Numbered from the stretch's first letter, positions 38,385 through 52,565 are shown. The stretch is DNA of 54,587 nt from Patescibacteria group bacterium (GCA_018826255.1 JAHJZO010000029.1:1-54587); one strand, 5' to 3'. Notes: generated from the letters alone by a model not told the origin. A program made the numbers and translations.

Positions 38385-39722
38385 TTATTTTCCCGCGCCG
38401 GAAAGTAAAATGCGAATTGTTTTTAACATAATTGATAAATCAAGAAACGCCGAACGGTTTTTCAAATAATATAAATCGTATTGGAGTTTTTCCAAGGTTT
38501 CTTTGAAAGTAGGGCCGGCATTAGGATTATGAAGTTGCGCCCAGCCGGCGATTCCCGGTTTTATCAAGTGCCGCATTTCATAAAAAGTAATTTCTTCCGA
38601 TAGTTTTTTTGCAAGCTCCGGTTTTTCCGGCCGCGGGCCGATAAACGACATTTGTCCAAGTAAAATATTCCAAACCTGTGGCAGTTCGTCAATATGAGTT
38701 TTGCGCAAAAATTTACCGACTAATGTAGATTTTTCTTCATATGATGTTCCGGCTTCTCGCGCGCTTGAGCCGCTAATCAATGACCTAAACTTTATTAAAG
38801 TAAATATTTGCCCATTTTTACCCACGCGCTGTTGTCTGTAAAAAACAGCTCCCGGATAAGACACTTCTATGGCTAAAACTACTAAGGGCGATATTATCAA
38901 TGTTATCAACCCAAGTATGATTGAACCGATAATATCAAAAGTTTTTTTTGTCGTTTCATAAAATCCTTTGGTAGATTGTCCGATATTTTCCAAAAACCAG
39001 GCCTCTTGGATAATTGAAATCGGCACACGGTTTGTCGTGGTTTCGTAAAATTTATCCAAATCATTAATGACAACGCCCTTTTTAAAATATTTGAAAAGCA
39101 AATAAGATAATTTTTTTGAATGATCAAACTGTTCGACTGAAACTATTAGTGAAAATTTTTTATCTTGCCAAAGATTTTCTAATTCGGCGGCATTGTCAGG
39201 CGCTAGAATTCCGACAGTTTGATAGCCCAGTTGTGGATTATTGCTCAAAAATTCTTTTAGCTCCATTATTTCTGGGCTGGCGCCAAGAAATGCAATCCCG
39301 ATTTTGAACGCTTTGGTAGCCCACTTATTAAAATATTGCCTCCAAAAATAAAGAATAGCCATGGTTAGGGCCAAATCAATAAACAAATTTATTTTTGGCG
39401 TAATTATAAAATATGGTATAAAATAAAAGAAAGAAACAGCAATTGCCGCGTTAACGCCAAAAGTAATAATGAGATTTTTGTAAAACAACCCTTCATTTTT
39501 AAGTTTTGACAAATCATAAAGACCCGCAGCCCAAAAAACGATTAGCCAGAGCGCGAATATTATGCTAAAAGGGACAAGATGGAGGGGGATGGAATTTTTG
39601 AGAACAATATAATCACGATTGATTAATGCGTAGCGGATAATGAGAGTCAGCCCTAAAGCCGCATAAAATATTACAACATCGCTCAAGACCAATAAAGATA
39701 CTTTTAGTTGTTTACGCCACAT
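38385..39722 (-). CDS. polyprenyl-phosphate sugar-phosphate transferase (WbaP/EpsB-type initiating enzyme)
   Basis: RQQRVGKNGQIFTLIKFRS and DELPQVWNILLGQMSFIGPRPE bacterial sugar transferase motifs, with N-terminal TM segments. Confidence 0.9.
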   Translation of the reverse strand: MWRKQLKVSLLVLSDVVIFYAALGLTLIIRYALINRDYIVLKNSIPLHLVPFSIIFALWLIVFWAAGLYDLSKLKNEGLFYKNLIITFGVNAAIAVSFFYFIPYFIITPKINLFIDLALTMAILYFWRQYFNKWATKAFKIGIAFLGASPEIMELKEFLSNNPQLGYQTVGILAPDNAAELENLWQDKKFSLIVSVEQFDHSKKLSYLLFKYFKKGVVINDLDKFYETTTNRVPISIIQEAWFLENIGQSTKGFYETTKKTFDIIGSIILGLITLIISPLVVLAIEVSYPGAVFYRQQRVGKNGQIFTLIKFRSLISGSSAREAGTSYEEKSTLVGKFLRKTHIDELPQVWNILLGQMSFIGPRPEKPELAKKLSEEITFYEMRHLIKPGIAGWAQLHNPNAGPTFKETLEKLQYDLYYLKNRSAFLDLSIMLKTIRILLSGAGK

Positions 39723-39725
39723 ATT

Positions 39726-41978
39726 ATGAATTCTAGCATACTATTAAAACTTATAAAATTCGGAATCGGTTTTATCCTATTTATCCCGCTTTACATCGGC
39801 GGTTCTTTTTTCTTTCCTTTTATTTTCCCGAAAATATGGCTTTTTCAATTGGTTACCGAAATTATTTTATTCCTTTATATTATTTTGGCGCTTACGGACG
39901 CGCGTTTTAGGCCAAAATGGAATTTAGCGCTTGGCGCGACAATGTTGCTTACAATAATTTTAATAATCACAAGTTTTACGGGAGTTGACGCTTTCAGGAG
40001 TTTTTGGGGCAATACCGAAAGAATGTCCGGCATAATTACGTGGTTTCACTTTGTGATTTTTGCCATAATTTTGTCCAGCGTTTTAACGACCGAAAAAGAA
40101 TGGCGAAAATTTTTTGGTATAGCGGTTATTGTCAGTGTTTTGGAATTCTTTTATACTCTGGCCCAATATTTTAACGCTTCTTGGGCATGGCTTCCATCAA
40201 GCCAGTCCGGGACGATTGGCAATGCCGATCTTTTGGGAAGTTACGCAATCTTTGGCGCCTTTTTCGCGCTTTATTTGTGGAAAAACTCAAAATCCGATTT
40301 CAAGTATTTTTGGGCAACCGCTTTTTTTCTTAATATCGGCACTCTTTACATAGCAAGCAGCCGAGGCGCCATTATTGGGTTTGTTATCGGGATTATTGCT
40401 TATATGCTTCTTAATATCGCTGATAATCGTGATCTCTGGAAAAAGTGGGCGATTATAGCAGCTATCCCGCTTTTAATCTATGGCTTTTTATGGACAATCA
40501 GAAGTTCCGATTTTATTAACAATAGCGTCCAACTTACCCGGTTAACAAATATTTCCTTGAAAGGCGATACGATTCAGCAACGTTTCACAGAATGGGGGAT
40601 TGCTTGGGACGCATTTTTGGCGCGCCCAATTTTCGGTTTTGGGCCTAATAATTATTTGTATCTTCACAATGCCTTTCTTGATCCAAGGGTTTACGAGCTT
40701 CGCGAAACCAACTTTGATCGCGCTCACAATGCCTATTTGGACTATGCCTCAATGAGCGGAATTTTAGGTCTCTTGGGTTATCTATTTTTGATCGGCGCTT
40801 TATTTTGGGTGTTTGTAAAGAATAAATTATGGATTCCTGCGTCATTAATGGTCGCTTATGCGGTGCAGAGTTTTTTTGTTTTTGATAGCCCAGCAAGTTA
40901 TATTGCGCTTTTTTTGACGATTGGATTTGCCATCTATAAAACTGGAAATTCCAATGACCAAATCCCAAGTTCTCATAAAGATCTCCCGAAGGGAGACAAG
41001 CAAATCCCAAATCCCAAATCTCTAAATTCCCAAACTATTATCGCTCTCTCTCTTGCCGCCTGCATCTTGTCGTTTTATATATTTTGGCAAGTGAGTGTTA
41101 AGCCGGCGGTAGCGAACAACGATTTTGTGAACGCTTTTAATAATCCGTCGCTTGGCGCCGAAGAATCGTTTAATCTGTATAAAAAGGCCGTGGCTCAAGA
41201 AACTCTTGGCACTACGGAATTTCGCAATCAGTATAATCCTTGGCTTCAGAAAAATTTGAACAATTTTAAACCGGAAGAACGTATTACAGTATTAGATTTT
41301 GGTATTAACGAGCTTGAAAAAGAAGTTAAAACTCATCCCATGGTTTTTAGTTATTTAAATCTCGGCCAAATTTATAATTATAAGGCGAGAGGATTTCAGG
41401 ACGAATCGGTGCGGATGGCCTTTTTTGAAAAAGCGGCAAGCGCTTACGATGAAGCCCTGAAACTTTCTCCAAACCGGTTGGAGGTCTTTTATTCTTATTT
41501 ACAACTATCTTTTGACGCTAAAAAATACGATAAAGGCGCAGAGTTGATGGAGCAGGTCGCTTCTCGCGCTCCTAATTATTGGCAAACCCATTGGTATCTC
41601 GGTTTTGCCTATACTATGGCGGGAAAAGATGAAGAAGCGGCGAAGGCGCTGAATAAAGCATTGGCAATTTTCTATAATCACAGCGGCGTGATTATAGAAA
41701 ATGGCAGATTAAAGTATGATTATGACAAAGCTCTAAATTTTGCGCTCGGTTTTGCGCCGAAGCAAGAAATTTTGGGAGCGGTGAATCCCTATATATGGCT
41801 AAAAATGTGGCCAGAACTTTTATTGCTTTATTTATCGGCCGAAAAAGGCGATCCCGAGGATATTCAACTGCACCAATCGCTCGCGCTGGTATACCAAAAT
41901 CTCGGCTTAAACGACAAAGCCAACGAAGAATTAAAAATTGTAAGGGCTTTGTCTGAAAATCAGAGCAGAAGCGAATGA
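39726..41978 (+). CDS. O-antigen ligase/polymerase-like (Wzy_C) membrane protein with C-terminal TPR repeats
   Basis: SSRGAIIGFVIG...FGFGPNNY...AHNAYLDYASMSGILGL. C-terminal TPR-like helical repeats. Confidence 0.8.
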   Translation: MNSSILLKLIKFGIGFILFIPLYIGGSFFFPFIFPKIWLFQLVTEIILFLYIILALTDARFRPKWNLALGATMLLTIILIITSFTGVDAFRSFWGNTERMSGIITWFHFVIFAIILSSVLTTEKEWRKFFGIAVIVSVLEFFYTLAQYFNASWAWLPSSQSGTIGNADLLGSYAIFGAFFALYLWKNSKSDFKYFWATAFFLNIGTLYIASSRGAIIGFVIGIIAYMLLNIADNRDLWKKWAIIAAIPLLIYGFLWTIRSSDFINNSVQLTRLTNISLKGDTIQQRFTEWGIAWDAFLARPIFGFGPNNYLYLHNAFLDPRVYELRETNFDRAHNAYLDYASMSGILGLLGYLFLIGALFWVFVKNKLWIPASLMVAYAVQSFFVFDSPASYIALFLTIGFAIYKTGNSNDQIPSSHKDLPKGDKQIPNPKSLNSQTIIALSLAACILSFYIFWQVSVKPAVANNDFVNAFNNPSLGAEESFNLYKKAVAQETLGTTEFRNQYNPWLQKNLNNFKPEERITVLDFGINELEKEVKTHPMVFSYLNLGQIYNYKARGFQDESVRMAFFEKAASAYDEALKLSPNRLEVFYSYLQLSFDAKKYDKGAELMEQVASRAPNYWQTHWYLGFAYTMAGKDEEAAKALNKALAIFYNHSGVIIENGRLKYDYDKALNFALGFAPKQEILGAVNPYIWLKMWPELLLLYLSAEKGDPEDIQLHQSLALVYQNLGLNDKANEELKIVRALSENQSRSE
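40971..40999. repeat. in-frame GC-rich hairpin module (TCTCCC-GAA-GGGAGA) within the ligase gene
   Basis: Exact 21-mer AGATCTCCCGAAGGGAGACAA (40979-40999) is shared with gap (48640-48660). Flanked by CAAATCCCAA direct repeats at 40959-40968 and 41001-41010. Confidence 0.85.
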
Positions 41979-47507: not shown

Positions 47508-48463
47508 TTTATGACACAATAATTATTGGCGGAGGGCCTGCCGGCGTGGCGGCCGGTGTTTATTCTGCTCGTAAAAAATTAAAAACATTAATTATAACAG
47601 AAAGTTTTGGCGGGCAATCAACGGTTGCCGAGAATATCGAAAATTGGATTGGCGCCAAAAAAATTTCCGGCATTGAATTTGCTAAGATGCTTGAGGAGCA
47701 TATTAGAGCGCAAGAAAATGTTGAAATAAAAATGCCGGAGAACGTAGTTGACATTAAAGAGTTGCCGGGTGACCCGACTGCGCGGGCAGGCTGGGAAGTC
47801 ACAACCGATAAAAATAATTCTTATCAAGCCAGGACTTTAATTGTCACTTCCGGGGGCCGCCGCCGCCGTCTTAATGTTCCGGGCGAGGATAAGTTTAAAG
47901 GCAAGGGGGTTGCTTATTGTTCAACTTGCGACGCTCCGGTTTTTAAAAACAAATCAGTTGCGGTTATCGGCGGCGGCGACACCGGTCTGGAAGCAGCGAT
48001 TGACTTAGCGCAATATGCCGCCAGGGTTTATTTAATAAGCAACAAAGAATCGCTTGTTGGCGACCTTTCAATTCAGGAAATGGTTAAAAATTCTGAAAAG
48101 ATAACTGTTATAGAAAACGCGAATGTTCAAGAAATCTTAGGCGATAAATTTGTTTCCGGCCTCAAGTATTTTGATAAAAACGACAATCAAATTAAAGATT
48201 TAGATGTTGAAGGAATTTTTGTTGAAATTGGATCAACGGCAAATTCAGAATTTATTAAAAAATTAGTGAATACCAATCAAAAAGGAGAAATTATCATTGA
48301 CCATAAGACCGGCGCAACGTCTCGTCCCGGAATTTTTGCGGCCGGCTTCATAACCGACGAAATTTACAAACAAAACAACATTTCTGCCGGGGATGGTGTC
48401 ACGGCCGCCCTTTCGGTGTATAATTATTTGATAAATAATAAAACATGGCAAAAACAAAAATAG
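47504..48463 (+). CDS. trxB: thioredoxin-disulfide reductase
   Basis: IIIGGGPAGVAAGVY FAD motif, CSTCDAPVF redox-active disulfide, VIGGGDTGLEAA NADPH motif. Confidence 0.9.
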   Translation: MIYDTIIIGGGPAGVAAGVYSARKKLKTLIITESFGGQSTVAENIENWIGAKKISGIEFAKMLEEHIRAQENVEIKMPENVVDIKELPGDPTARAGWEVTTDKNNSYQARTLIVTSGGRRRRLNVPGEDKFKGKGVAYCSTCDAPVFKNKSVAVIGGGDTGLEAAIDLAQYAARVYLISNKESLVGDLSIQEMVKNSEKITVIENANVQEILGDKFVSGLKYFDKNDNQIKDLDVEGIFVEIGSTANSEFIKKLVNTNQKGEIIIDHKTGATSRPGIFAAGFITDEIYKQNNISAGDGVTAALSVYNYLINNKTWQKQK

Positions 48464-49500
48464 CGATTAATGGTTTTGGACGGATAGGGCGCATTTTTTT
48501 CCGCCACGCGTTTGAATGCCCTGACGTGGAAATTGTCGCGGTTAACGACCTGACGGAGCCTGAAAATATGGCTTATCTTTTAAAATACGACACGGTTTAT
48601 GGTCCCTATGACAAAAATGTCAAATGTTCTCCCTATGGGAGATCTCCCGAAGGGAGACAAATGTCAAATGTCAAAAATATTTTGGTGGTAGATGGAAAAA
48701 AAATCAGGATACTACAGGAAAAGGACCCTTCAAAACTTCCTTGGAAAGAACTGGGTGTCGATATTGTCGTTGAATCAACCGGTGTTTTTGAGTCAAACGA
48801 GAAAGCGGCGGCGCATTTAACTGCCGGCGCCAAAAGAGTAGTTATTTCCGCTCCCGCGAAAGATGAAATAACTCCAACTGCTACTCCGAATGTCGGAGAA
48901 GAATTTTTAAAAAACGGCAAAATAACCTCTAATGGCTCTTGCACTACCAATGCGGCAACACCAGTGATGGCGGTGATGTCTGAAAATCCCGGAATTAAAA
49001 AAGCCGTTTTAAGCACTGTGCGCGCGTATACCGCATCTCAGGGATTGATTGATGGTTCGGATAAAAAAAATGACTACAGAAGGGCCCGAGCGGCGGCGCA
49101 AAATATTGTTCCTTCAACATCCGGAGTTGCTACGGCGGCTATAAAAGCGTTTCCGTCGCTGAATGGAAAGTTTATCGGCATTGCTTTAAGAGTGCCGATA
49201 ATTTGCGGTTCTATCATTGATTTTACTTTTATCGCTAATCGTTCTACTACGGCTGAAGAAATTAATTTTATTTTCAAAAAAGCGGCGGCCGAAAAACAAT
49301 GGAAAGGAATTTTAACAGTTACCGAAGAGCCGTTAGTTTCAAGCGATATTCTTAAAAATTACCATGGCTCTATCGTGGATCTTTCTATGACAAAAGTTGT
49401 TGACGGGGATTTAGTTAAAGTTTTGTCATGGTACGACAATGAATGGGGGTACGCTTCAATGTTGCTTAAGCATGTTTTGGCGGTAAGTAAATTATTATGA
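48445..49500 (+). CDS. gap: glyceraldehyde-3-phosphate dehydrogenase (type I) carrying a short in-frame insert
   Basis: INGFGRIGRIF. SCTTNA catalytic Cys. WYDNEWGY near the C-terminus. Confidence 0.9.
   Translation: MAKTKIAINGFGRIGRIFFRHAFECPDVEIVAVNDLTEPENMAYLLKYDTVYGPYDKNVKCSPYGRSPEGRQMSNVKNILVVDGKKIRILQEKDPSKLPWKELGVDIVVESTGVFESNEKAAAHLTAGAKRVVISAPAKDEITPTATPNVGEEFLKNGKITSNGSCTTNAATPVMAVMSENPGIKKAVLSTVRAYTASQGLIDGSDKKNDYRRARAAAQNIVPSTSGVATAAIKAFPSLNGKFIGIALRVPIICGSIIDFTFIANRSTTAEEINFIFKKAAAEKQWKGILTVTEEPLVSSDILKNYHGSIVDLSMTKVVDGDLVKVLSWYDNEWGYASMLLKHVLAVSKLL
48628..48660. repeat. two tandem 15-nt hairpin units (TCTCCC-TAT-GGGAGA, TCTCCC-GAA-GGGAGA) in frame within gap
   Basis: Units at 48628-48642 and 48643-48657. 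12-nt direct repeat AATGTCAAATGT at 48616-48627 and 48660-48671. Confidence 0.85.
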
Positions 49501-50108: not shown

Positions 50109-50551
50109 TTTACATTGGCGCTGACCACAGGGGCTATAGTTTAAAAGAAGCTATTAAAGGTTATTTATCCGCCCAAGGCGGACCAGCCGCAGGCTGGAAA
50201 GATCTTGGAGCTTTTAAGTATGACCCAGATGACGATTATCCGGATTACGCCTTGGCGGTTGCCCGAAAAGTTGCTGAAGATTCGGAAAACAGCCGCGGAA
50301 TTTTAATTTGCGGTTCAGGCGTCGGCGTTGATATTGTCGCCAATAAAATAAAGAATATTCGTTCGGCGCTTTGTTTTGACGCTAAGCAAGCGCAAGCTGG
50401 TCGCAACGATGACAACACAAACGTCTTGTCGCTTCCGGCAGATTATATTTCCGAAGATTTAGCCAAGGAAATTACCAAAGTATGGCTCGAAACGCCGTTT
50501 TCCGGAGAAGAAAATCACACAAGAAGAATTGAGAAAATTAAAAAGATTTAA
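50105..50551 (+). CDS. rpiB: ribose-5-phosphate isomerase B (RpiB/LacAB family)
   Basis: GADHRG, ILICGSGVGVDIVANK, NDDNTNVLSLP. Confidence 0.85.
   Translation: MIYIGADHRGYSLKEAIKGYLSAQGGPAAGWKDLGAFKYDPDDDYPDYALAVARKVAEDSENSRGILICGSGVGVDIVANKIKNIRSALCFDAKQAQAGRNDDNTNVLSLPADYISEDLAKEITKVWLETPFSGEENHTRRIEKIKKI
50166..50196. repeat. two 15-nt hairpin units in frame within rpiB
   Basis: TATCCGCC-CAA-GGCGGACC (50166-50184), then CAGCC-GCA-GGCTG (50184-50196). Encodes SAQGGPAAG. Confidence 0.8.
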
Positions 50552-51197: not shown

Positions 51198-52565
51198 ATG
51201 AATGGACAGAATGGGCATAATGGAAAAAATATATCCGCCACAGGCGGACCCGCCACAGGCGGACCCGCCTCTGGCGGGGAACCAAAAAAGTTTTTGTTTA
51301 TCTCATTGGAAAGTTTAAGCGGCGATCTTGCGTGGCAGTTGACCAAAGAAGGCCACAAAGTTAAAGCTTACATAAAAGATAAAGGTGATGCCGATGTTTA
51401 TGATGGTTTTATAGAAAAAGTTGATAATTGGGAATCGCACAAAGATTGGGCGGATGTGATTGTTTTTGACGATGTGGAATTTGGAGAAATTGCCGACAAA
51501 TTAAGAAAAAATGGCAAGTTAGTTATTGGCGGCAGTAAATATACCGATGAATTGGAAATGGATAGGGATTTTGGCCAAGGCGAAATGAAAAAATATGGAG
51601 TTAATACTCTGCCTCAGTGGCAATTTTCCAGCTACGATGGAGCCATTGAATTTATTGAAAAAAATCCCGAAAGATATGTTTTTAAACCCAGTGGGAATAC
51701 TCCATCCGCTGGTAAAGGTCTTTTGTTTCTGGGCCAAGAGGAAGATGGAAAGGATTTGCTTGAGCTTTTGAAACAGAACAAAAATTTATGGACTAAAAAA
51801 GTTCCGGTTTTTCAACTTCAAAAATTCGTTTCTGGAGTTGAAGTGGCAGTCGGCGCGTTTTTCAACGGCAAAGATTTTATTTTGCCGATAAATGTCAATT
51901 TTGAACACAAAAGAGTTTTCCCCGGCGACATTGGTCCATTTACCGGCGAAATGGGTACTCTGATGTTTTGGAGCGAGCCCAACAAGTTATTTCATATGAC
52001 TCTTGAGAAAATGAAACCGGCTTTGGTGGAATCCGGCTATATCGGTTATATCGACATAAATTGCATTGTCAATGGCAAGGGGATATATCCTCTGGAATTT
52101 ACGGCGCGTTTTGGCTATCCGACTATTCAGATTCAATCTGAAGGAATAACAATGCCTACGGGCGAATGGCTTTATAAATTGGCGAGCGGAGAGAGTTTTG
52201 AATTGAAAACCAAAAAAGGTTTTCAGGTCGGGGTGAGAGTTAATGTCCCCACACTTTTTGTAAAATCCACGGACAAAGAAACCATTGAAATGTATCGGGA
52301 TCTGCCGATTCTTTTTAAGAAACCGGATAATTTAGACGGAATTCACATTGAAGATGTTAAAAAAGAAGATGGCTCATGGCGAGTTGCCGGCGTATCTGGT
52401 TGCTTAATGGTCGTTACCGGTTCTGGCACCACTGTTAACGAAGCGAGACAGCAGGTTTATTCCAGAATAAAGAACATAATGGTTCAGGATATGTTTTATC
52501 GAACTGATATCGGGCTGAAATGGAACACCGATAGCGACAAGCTCCAAACTTGGGGTTATTTATGA
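51198..52565 (+). CDS. PurD-like ATP-grasp protein (phosphoribosylamine-glycine ligase-like) with repeat-built N-terminal extension
   Basis: LAWQL and EHKRVFPGDIGPFTGEMG resemble the PurD motifs ALAWKL and DHKR...GPNTGGMG. Confidence 0.6.
   Translation: MNGQNGHNGKNISATGGPATGGPASGGEPKKFLFISLESLSGDLAWQLTKEGHKVKAYIKDKGDADVYDGFIEKVDNWESHKDWADVIVFDDVEFGEIADKLRKNGKLVIGGSKYTDELEMDRDFGQGEMKKYGVNTLPQWQFSSYDGAIEFIEKNPERYVFKPSGNTPSAGKGLLFLGQEEDGKDLLELLKQNKNLWTKKVPVFQLQKFVSGVEVAVGAFFNGKDFILPINVNFEHKRVFPGDIGPFTGEMGTLMFWSEPNKLFHMTLEKMKPALVESGYIGYIDINCIVNGKGIYPLEFTARFGYPTIQIQSEGITMPTGEWLYKLASGESFELKTKKGFQVGVRVNVPTLFVKSTDKETIEMYRDLPILFKKPDNLDGIHIEDVKKEDGSWRVAGVSGCLMVVTGSGTTVNEARQQVYSRIKNIMVQDMFYRTDIGLKWNTDSDKLQTWGYL
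51232..51279. repeat. three tandem 15-nt hairpin units in frame at the 5' end of the ATP-grasp gene
   Basis: CCGCCACAGGCGGAC x2 then CCGCCTCTGGCGGGG. The first unit, TATCCGCC-ACA-GGCGGACC, matches the rpiB unit arms exactly. Confidence 0.85.

Follow-up and report, generated by a model that had tools for sequence, protein, structure and literature searches.

The window analysed here is a stretch of 54,587 nt from a Patescibacteria group bacterium (GCA_018826255.1 JAHJZO010000029.1:1-54587; positions are counted from its first letter). It carries a gene for type I glyceraldehyde-3-phosphate dehydrogenase (GAPDH) with two tandem 15-nt hairpins, H1 and H2, in its N-terminal half (Table 1). The open reading frame (ORF), with 1HDG as its best match in the PDB (E 9e-89), gives a translation containing ...YDKNVKCSPYGRSPEGRQMSNVKNILVVDGKKI. 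Together, H1 and H2 make up a GC-rich insert of 30 nt (48628–48657), which occupies GAPDH codons 62–71 in frame and reads SPYGRSPEGR. A first inspection of the DNA alone (below, the sequence-only reading) had already pointed to the two tandem hairpins and to the same element elsewhere in the window, and both are confirmed. Three occurrences of TCTCCCNNNGGGAGA in the window (the third at 40982–40996), against 0.04 expected from shuffles, are a recurrence beyond chance. The folding prediction for the insert is a strong hairpin (−26 kcal/mol, z −6). With Rfam, no family, tRNA included, reaches the gathering score anywhere in the 54.6-kb window; none does so on nine further loci, and nothing meaningful for the element appears at permissive thresholds.

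Table 1. Features of the window, with their positions and states in related sequences (TRF, Tandem Repeats Finder)
Feature	Position	Strand	Remarks
Host gene, type I GAPDH	48445..49500	+	351-aa ORF; homologues with PF00044/PF02800
Heptamer tract, left part (ACAAAAATGT CAAATGT)	48611..48627	+	Host sequence outside the insert; unchanged in empty L202/L203 and in L192
Hairpin unit 1 (H1) TCTCCCTATGGGAGA	48628..48642	+	TCTCCC-TAT-GGGAGA; 6-bp stem, TNT/TNC-type loop
Hairpin unit 2 (H2) TCTCCCGAAGGGAGA	48643..48657	+	TCTCCC-GAA-GGGAGA; C-GAA-G mini-hairpin loop
Heptamer tract, right part (CAAATGT CAAATGT CAAAAAT)	48658..48678	+	TRF period 7, 2.6 copies; unchanged in empty alleles
Second copy, 24-nt variant TCATAAAGA + TCTCCCGAAGGGAGA	40973..40996	+	In frame in Wzy_C/TPR membrane protein 39708–41978; junction TTC^CAA
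CAAATCC heptamer tract beside second copy	40997..41034	+	TRF period 7, 4.6 copies; retained in empty allele L203
CCGCC-family module pair TCCGCCCAAGGCGGA CCAGCCGCAGGCTGG	50168..50197	+	In frame in RpiB (SAQGGPAAGW); unrelated sequence there in the L192 orthologue
Three tandem 15-nt CCGCC-family modules	51234..51278	+	In frame, PurD/GARS N-terminal extension (SATGGPATGGPASGG); polymorphic versus L202
Period-9 tract upstream of PurD modules	51200..51226	+	TRF; adjacent tract and modules polymorphic versus L202

Two contigs of the Hainich groundwater metagenome, L202 and L203, retrieved in a scan with a GAPDH anchor, are 97–99% identical to the window around GAPDH. Both lack exactly 48628–48657, with the heptamer tract around the site identical. 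The boundaries of the 30 nt are unique (a shift by one base fails to give the empty allele), and the junction is TGT^CAA. In the relative L192 (protein P0007), an unbroken tract, (AATGTCA)x4, encodes NVKCQMSNVKN, and the window corresponds to the L192 sequence plus exactly 30 nt. At the second site, 40973–40996, L203 lacks exactly 24 nt, and the flanking CAAATCC tract is unchanged. Since the empty alleles keep an identical tract, there is neither a target-site duplication nor a compensating indel: the events in the window are scar-free gains or losses at TGT^CAA and TTC^CAA. A search for related loci based on GAPDH gave distant genomes only (≤65% identity), of no use for comparison of empty sites.

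These alleles bear on several points of the sequence-only reading. An inserted palindromic element in a GAPDH loop had been proposed, and the exact presence or absence of the 30 nt between near-isogenic strains, together with hundreds of copies elsewhere and empty orthologous sites, supports it; alleles lacking the insert do occur in metagenomes, and the segment does not behave as an assembly artefact. The 12-nt direct repeats said to flank the hairpins exist, with AATGTCAAATGT at 48616–48627 and 48660–48671, but they belong to a pre-existing CAAATGT array. Likewise, the repeat offset of 44 nt is real, but AATGTCAAA also recurs at an offset of 51 (17 codons, in frame) because the right flank is a tandem CAAATGT tract. 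The idea that an "extra AA" in the left flank was a compensating indel that restored the frame has to be abandoned, as the empty L202 and L203 already carry it. For the observed events, the 12-nt repeat and the heptamers are rejected as a target-site duplication, the tract being unchanged in both contigs.

Canonical relatives of the GAPDH have 336–337 aa and no counterpart of the insert (…YDKSVEIK-NSEMIVDGK…), including P0002 at 86–89% identity. The extra length noted earlier (about 15–17 residues) is thus genuine, but it amounts to 14–15 residues versus these relatives, 10 from the hairpins and about four from the heptamer-tract loop variant. The independent assembly P0001 (99% identical) also carries the insert. 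Alignment of the orthologs shows empty sites and not a loop of equal length throughout. The loop is empty in P0002/L191, contains the tract only in P0007/L192, and holds TCACCC-type hairpins in L193 and TCCGCC-type hairpins in L194–196. In L193, the hairpins (TCACCCTACGGGTGA TCACCCGAAGGGTGA) stand 8 nt further along the heptamer tract. In L196, the pair TCCGCCAAAGGCGGA TCCGCCCTTGGCGGA forms an exact 30-nt insert with no flanking repeat, of which L194 and L195 contain versions partly decayed by point mutations. At least three hairpin families have therefore hit this same GAPDH loop in different lineages, with insertions at or beside the same codon.

With respect to structure, the alignment with 1HDG leaves a gap of 14 residues at the insert (…PGKV–gap–EYTENSLIVDGKEI…). 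In an AlphaFold model built from a shallow alignment, and used only for the local strand-loop-strand pattern, residues 63–75 form a loop between strands 59–62 and 76–82. The insert site is thus modelled as a loop between two predicted β-strands of the NAD-binding domain, as the mapping proposed in the sequence-only reading would have it, although the confidence of the model is low (mean pLDDT 51).

In a neighbor-joining tree with the loop masked, the heptamer-tract loop appears in at least five lineages, each with a sister having the canonical loop. In addition, the 60 nt just 3′ of the loop in the window are closer to P0005 than to the overall nearest relative, P0002. It thus seems that recombination carries loop cassettes from one GAPDH allele to another. 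More generally, GAPDH has a mosaic look in these Azambacteria-like populations, where lineages that are not sisters have the heptamer-tract loop in common. Because of the decay in L194 and L195 and the empty sister alleles, the insert in GAPDH would be neutral baggage, dispensable in sister strains and decaying in other lineages.

The second copy in the window is read in another frame (…HKDLPKGD…). The two sites share AGATCTCCCGAAGGGAGACAA (21 nt), translated as SPEGRQ in one and DLPKGDK in the other, so that the shared unit is DNA and not a protein motif. The identical 24-nt variant is also present in an unrelated genome (locus L108). A different loop of the Wzy_C protein (window 40292; L203 4240–4290; L192 1705–1732) exists in three states among relatives: empty in the window, with a 51-nt perfect palindrome, AAATATCGATATCCGACATC-aaagttccccc-GATGTCGGATATCGATATTT, in L203, and with a TCCCCC/TCTCCC double hairpin in L192.

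In a species-representative genome collection, the 20-nt core GATCTCCCGAAGGGAGACAA is found exactly in at least 110 stretches versus about one expected, and nearly all are from Patescibacteria (Saccharibacteria, Parcubacteria groups, Azambacteria, Nomurabacteria, Shapirobacteria, Amesbacteria, and others). By chance alone, the collection should contain a 17-mer about 69 times, which explains scattered matches outside the candidate phyla radiation (CPR). Five viral matches to H2 are likewise attributed to chance, all being in contigs of 57–64% GC without H1 or CAA. A second sequence family, with TCCGCCnnnGGCGGA twice, is present in CPR as well as in a number of other uncultivated phyla, with more than 120 stretches; the modules in RpiB and PurD (Table 1) belong to it. 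A search of the literature turned up no account of such elements in CPR. Copying of the module has taken place between sites and genomes that are unrelated, and copies in frame within genes persist.

The common plan consists of two 15-nt units, each TC-N4-loop-N4′-GA, with the first loop usually TNC and the second GNA. In nearly all copies, the core is preceded by a second hairpin, and the stems differ by compensatory changes; the H1 stem, for example, can be TCTCCC/GGGAGA, TCCCCC/GGGGGA, or TCTGCC/GGCAGA. In a few copies (e.g., L091 and L108), the first unit is truncated or decayed. Pair 3–13 is T-A in 51 copies and C-G in 33, while pair 4–12 is C-G in 72, G-C in 13, and A-T in five. This covariation favors two separate hairpins, and the single long hairpin of the predicted minimum-energy fold is rejected. 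Of 113 copies, 95 have a TNC first loop (TAC, TTC, TGC, or TCC); with GAA as the second loop, there is one C-GNA-G loop on each DNA strand. Very stable DNA mini-hairpins form only with GNA loops closed by C-G (PMC13037366, PMC3201870), and a CCGAAGG hairpin is part of the ssiA priming signal of RSF1010 (PMC13037366). Mismatches in the stems are as often G-T (19) as A-C (18), so that nothing is specific to RNA structure.

Some loci show other arrangements. Head-to-tail arrays of 37-nt units (CAATTTT + H1 + H2) are present in L014 (1780–1890), L011, and L076, so tandem amplification can act on the unit together with one heptamer. Different repeats and hairpin layouts are seen in the Elusimicrobia metagenome-assembled genome MGVE01 (L222, L236, L243, L250, L252, L259, and L260) and in L398, L284, and L041. 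In the repeat ...GTCATTGCGA-TCTCCCGAAGGGAGA-GAAGCAATC..., with at least 10 copies in one genome, the same H2 forms the tip of a longer hairpin.

Sixty-nine of 118 copies (about 58%) lie inside ORFs of at least 150 codons, versus 81% of random positions in the same loci. Among these genic copies, 53 are sense and 16 antisense, and the sense copies are distributed over the three frames as 24:10:19. In the consensus, the three sense frames are free of stops and encode SPxGR-SPEGR, LPxGD-LPKGD, or SLRG-ISRRE. In the synthetase domain of RelA/SpoT, the same site is filled in two genomes (L013 4147–6354 and L086 1296–3497; …HTTVF[CLPMGDLPKGDK]GGHITEFQIRT…). In CysRS (L348 1887–3347), a TCCGCC-type pair stands just before the KMSKS-like motif RMGKS. 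For 55 of 109 copies, the strand with the element has a positive GC skew, which gives no signal for a replication-strand bias, and intergenic copies show no orientation bias with respect to GC skew or neighboring genes. The sense bias is, therefore, more likely due to an A-rich target or to selection than to replication-strand specificity.

The junctions from independent sources, TGT^CAA, TTC^CAA, CTG^CAA (in tRNA-Cys), TTG^AAA (in tRNA-Ser), and those of the flank logos, are consistently (T/C)TG^(C/A)AA-like. When searched without forcing CAA, the 3′ flank is A-rich (AAA, CAG, GAA, or TAA) and the 5′ flank is mostly TTG. Exact repeats of at least 7 nt between left and right flanks accompany 36% of copies (8% for shuffled pairs and 5% for far flanks). 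The adjacent flanks also have a period-7 signal, and many copies read CAAnnnn-[H1H2]-CAAnnnn. In 1.6 Mb of low-GC CPR loci, there are 148 perfect period-7 tandem tracts versus nine after shuffling (∼16-fold), an enrichment far above that of periods 5, 6, and 9 (examples in the window are 41001–41034 and 48658–48675). Within 25 nt of a GC hairpin, one finds 15% of the period-7 tracts versus 4.3% of the sequence (∼3.5-fold). Because near-isogenic empty alleles keep their tracts, the tracts would be either preferred targets, with nnn^CAA at unit boundaries, or scars of older events.

Several copies come directly after 5′ fragments of tRNAs. In L231, the element lies in a partial copy of tRNA-Ser(TGA) at CTTG^AAAAC. 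In a larger group, it lies at GGTCTG^CAAAAC, that is, in the anticodon loop of tRNA-Cys(GCA), and about 11 nt downstream begins an ORF of 80–83 aa, ending at an intact tRNA-Cys, that matches PF01541 (E 1e-17), the GIY-YIG catalytic domain. In 2.27 Mb of loci, the 11 members of this subfamily are all within 17 nt of a hairpin module, versus 4.3% of the sequence that close. As those loci had been chosen for containing the element, the test was repeated starting from a protein search alone. For all five close homologues found in this way, a tRNA-Cys pseudo-fragment that contains the double hairpin immediately precedes the gene, and an intact tRNA-Cys follows it; the hairpin occupies the anticodon loop in four of them and the D-loop, at AGC^CAAG, in the fifth. 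One distant homologue is without the double hairpin. In total, 16 of 16 close members have a double hairpin directly upstream in a disrupted tRNA-Cys copy, in 15 cases at CTG^CAAAAC.

The result is a conserved CPR locus with a 5′ pseudo-fragment of tRNA-Cys containing the double hairpin, the GIY-YIG gene, and the intact tRNA-Cys (L008, L052, L053, L080, L082, L104, L110, L220, L225, L249, L282, and L403–L407; e.g., L052 1500–1900 and L403 300–720). IF-2/RbfA is often upstream and tRNA-Leu downstream; three of the loci from the protein search share IF-2/RbfA. The GGGAGA arm is 11–14 nt before the ATG of the nuclease. Over 12 nuclease loci, all 144 cells of the stem alignment pair and six of the 12 pairs show compensatory double changes, a level reached by none of 500 shuffles, with slid controls at 36–61%. 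The loops stay TNC and GNA. Compensatory changes and kept loops together indicate that the hairpin structure is under selection at the nuclease locus.

The same layout is found with tRNA-Ser and TCCGCC-type modules (L308). A related one is seen on the minus strand of L274 (450–860), where a 59-nt repeat stands on either side of a GIY-YIG gene; the repeat consists of the 5′ part of tRNA-Asp, whose D-loop contains, at TTT^AAC, a TGACCC/TCACCC double hairpin. In L231 (6040–6320), L210, and L227, tandem partial copies of the 5′ half of tRNA-Ser(TGA) occur just upstream of the intact tRNA-Ser. Each copy ends with CTTG^, the double hairpin, and about 20 nt, and there is no nuclease gene between them. 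Hairpins of the GTCATTGCGAG...GAAGCAATC type immediately precede other GIY-YIG genes; L398 has a further one downstream, in inverted orientation.

The explanation that we favor, with somewhat more confidence than doubt, is that 48628–48657 is a solo copy of a selfish, scar-free mobile element, a double mini-hairpin tolerated in a GAPDH loop and probably driven by a nuclease. The insert would be translated through as SPYGRSPEGR. It would be tolerated because the length of the unit is a multiple of three, the sense frames are free of stops, and the peptides are rich in Gly, Pro, Ser, and Arg, a composition that should suit surface loops. As for the driver, we tentatively put forward the small GIY-YIG nuclease cassette, with the module as its cis-element, as a reasonable candidate that still falls short of probable. 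The nuclease would cleave (T/C)TG^(C/A)AA-like sites, perhaps presented in hairpin loops; the module would be copied or ligated into the cut without target duplication; and filled loops would then spread between GAPDH alleles through homologous recombination. In a bolder version, which we consider unlikely, the 80-aa enzyme next to tRNA-Cys would both insert and excise the 15-nt modules without scars, recognizing hairpin loops or (T/C)TG^CAA and steadily reshaping surface loops in essential proteins, with pseudo-tRNA fragments and 7-bp tracts as by-products; if true, this would be a new mode of DNA mobility.

Several points weigh against this explanation. The near-isogenic difference of 30 nt may reflect insertion or excision, and the translation of the insert is deduced from its frame. 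The structure model is of low quality, and the association with heptamer tracts is not accounted for. There is no GIY-YIG gene in the window, and the conserved synteny with IF-2/RbfA is more suggestive of a locus that is old and stable than of an active mobile unit. The link to the nuclease may also be indirect, the pseudo-tRNA loops of the cassettes being neutral, well-matched targets. Finally, in one genome (CAYHOD01), the H1 of most dispersed copies differs from that of the cassette copy.

The main rival for the driver is a hairpin-recognizing HUH/Y1 transposase of the IS200/IS605 or RAYT type, which would move a minimal non-autonomous element by "peel and paste" with H1 and H2 as end hairpins; we hold it to be rather unlikely. 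The scar-free gain and loss with no target duplication, a hairpin at each end, and the short sequence TTG/TTT preferred in the left flank would all fit. An IS200-like TnpA does exist in CPR (L348), with tandem GC hairpins at its end, one containing CCCGAAGGG. However, that gene is the only IS200-like one returned by tblastn with Y1 and RAYT queries in 2.3 Mb of element-bearing loci, and, its end hairpins being different from the modules, its proximity to a module in L348 is treated as a coincidence. Further, the orientation of the copies is uncorrelated with GC skew, intergenic copies are unbiased, and 30 nt is too short for the guide and cleavage sequences of IS608.

Selection could, alternatively, maintain the module as a functional DNA or RNA signal (for priming, protein binding, or uptake, or as a leader sequestering the ribosome-binding site), spread mainly by recombination. 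The presence of one C-GNA-G mini-hairpin per strand, a motif also in priming signals such as ssiA (PMC13037366), the selected structure at the nuclease locus with its GGGAGA arm shortly before the ATG, and the non-monophyletic loop cassette of GAPDH, which implies allelic transfer, would agree with this. Yet the GAPDH copy is dispensable, being absent in sister strains, and it decays by point mutation in L194 and L195; recombination alone cannot put the same 24–30 nt in unrelated genes; and the even G-T and A-C mismatches carry no RNA-specific signature. We regard a signal spread in this way as improbable.

Break-repair filler is a very improbable origin. Blunt TC...GA hairpin fragments would be captured at double-strand breaks, and staggered cuts of 7 nt would give the heptamer duplications. 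It is true that every unit starts with TC and ends with GA, that tandem units join at GA|TC, and that period-7 tracts are both over-represented and enriched beside hairpins. But neither genes for end joining nor a nuclease that makes staggered cuts could be identified, the number of heptamers stays the same in the gains and losses observed, and the consistent target junction and orientation rules point to a specific reaction.

Local slippage or template switching, an assembly artefact, and translational bypass are effectively excluded. For slippage, one could invoke the tandem repeats of the flanks and the different 51-nt palindrome, with local sequence, in the Wzy loop of L203; but the same 21 nt stands in another gene of the window in another frame, and the exact core copies are spread over independent assemblies from many laboratories, P0001 among them. 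The sequence-only reading had left the choice between a mobile and a slippage-made insert: it does behave as mobile DNA, and local slippage is excluded because genes and genomes with no relation to one another contain the same sequence, in differing reading frames. The idea that the 30 nt are removed from the mRNA, or that ribosomes skip them in the manner of T4 gene 60 and mitochondrial byp elements, might find some support in the strong predicted hairpin and in the matched AAA codons at 48622 and 48673. Such a bypass needs a frame break or stops, but the insert is in frame and stop-free here, as are 53 other sense genic copies in three frames, which makes removal unnecessary, and a hop from one 12-nt repeat to the other would put the ribosome in a frame that runs into a stop.

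A selfish double mini-hairpin of this kind would have several consequences. The tiny, streamlined genomes of CPR tolerate a repeat that writes extra peptides into essential enzymes, among them GAPDH, RelA/SpoT, CysRS, RpiB, and PurD. With 30 nt and scar-free gain and loss, the element comes close to the smallest size that mobile DNA can have. Marker proteins vary in length because of its modules, and the strain-level indels can break assemblies and alignments, but they could also serve as strain markers. As the element is strictly associated with a bare GIY-YIG domain, its mechanism can be approached by experiment; if the nuclease link is true, the system would be a compact, structure-specific one for DNA insertion.

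Among known systems, TIGR arrays are defined by a Tas gene at their side, by box C/D motifs, and by 36-nt units in tandem in which conserved edge and loop repeats enclose variable spacers (PMC12045711). They were considered for the tandem 37-nt units in L014 and L011 and rejected, since the element consists of single genic units without variable spacers. A classical miniature inverted-repeat transposable element is also rejected: there is no target-site duplication (exactly 30 nt in GAPDH and 24 nt in Wzy, with identical flanks), and, instead of terminal inverted repeats over ∼50–500 bp, one finds 24–45 nt of self-complementary 15-nt units.

The REP/REPIN repeats with their RAYT transposases and the hairpin elements derived from IS200/IS605 are likewise short hairpin repeats recognized by structure, with no target-site duplication. 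However, REPs are extragenic, with a 5′ GTAG and a flanking RAYT gene, and none of these features was found for the element: over half of its copies are inside long ORFs, and the left flank is TTG/TTT. In tblastn searches for RAYT, with approximate query sequences and thus limited sensitivity, only weak matches were obtained, in non-CPR loci. Elements of the IS200/IS605 type share with the module the absence of target duplication and hairpins at both ends, but as a cognate only the TnpA of L348 was found, with different end hairpins, and there is no strand bias.

Mini-hairpins of the d(GCGAAGC) type are represented in H2, with C-GAA-G, and in H1, with C-GNA-G on the other strand (PMC13037366, PMC3201870). 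They are, however, a structural motif and not a genetic element, and their relevance here is putative. The GIY-YIG cassette, whose nuclease would cut the target or move the hairpin, is a candidate parent, all 16 close members having the double hairpin upstream in a disrupted tRNA copy. Free-standing GIY-YIG homing endonuclease genes, such as T4 Seg, are located in a tRNA gene region. In both cases, a small GIY-YIG gene has been inserted between or within tRNA genes and the target is partly duplicated; here, in contrast, the protein is a bare catalytic domain of ∼80 aa, always with a structured double hairpin upstream. The hairpin alone is, moreover, dispersed genome-wide, something not known from Seg or I-TevI systems.

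In AT-rich organellar genomes, short GC-rich two-hairpin elements, namely the double-hairpin elements (DHEs) of Allomyces, the GC clusters of yeast, and other organellar hairpin repeats, occur between genes and in frame within them. We know of no dedicated enzyme for the mitochondrial DHEs and GC clusters. They are organellar and unrelated in sequence, whereas the element described here has as its host a bacterial radiation at phylum level, and it has a candidate nuclease. Rickettsia palindromic elements (RPEs) are selfish palindromic repeats in frame in unrelated, often essential, protein genes (PMC10969869). Here, too, a palindromic repeat stands in frame in protein genes, to which it would add a tolerated peptide. 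RPEs, however, have ∼100–150 bp, belong to families confined to Rickettsia, and encode one conserved peptide, while the present element is built of 15-nt modules (24–45 nt in total), is read in three frames in many CPR classes, shows scar-free presence or absence, and is linked to GIY-YIG genes and tRNAs. No match to Rfam or to a known family places it among the RPE families. The RPEs and the mitochondrial DHEs and GC clusters are, nevertheless, the closest known systems, and, from this comparison, the element appears to work as they do at a much smaller size.

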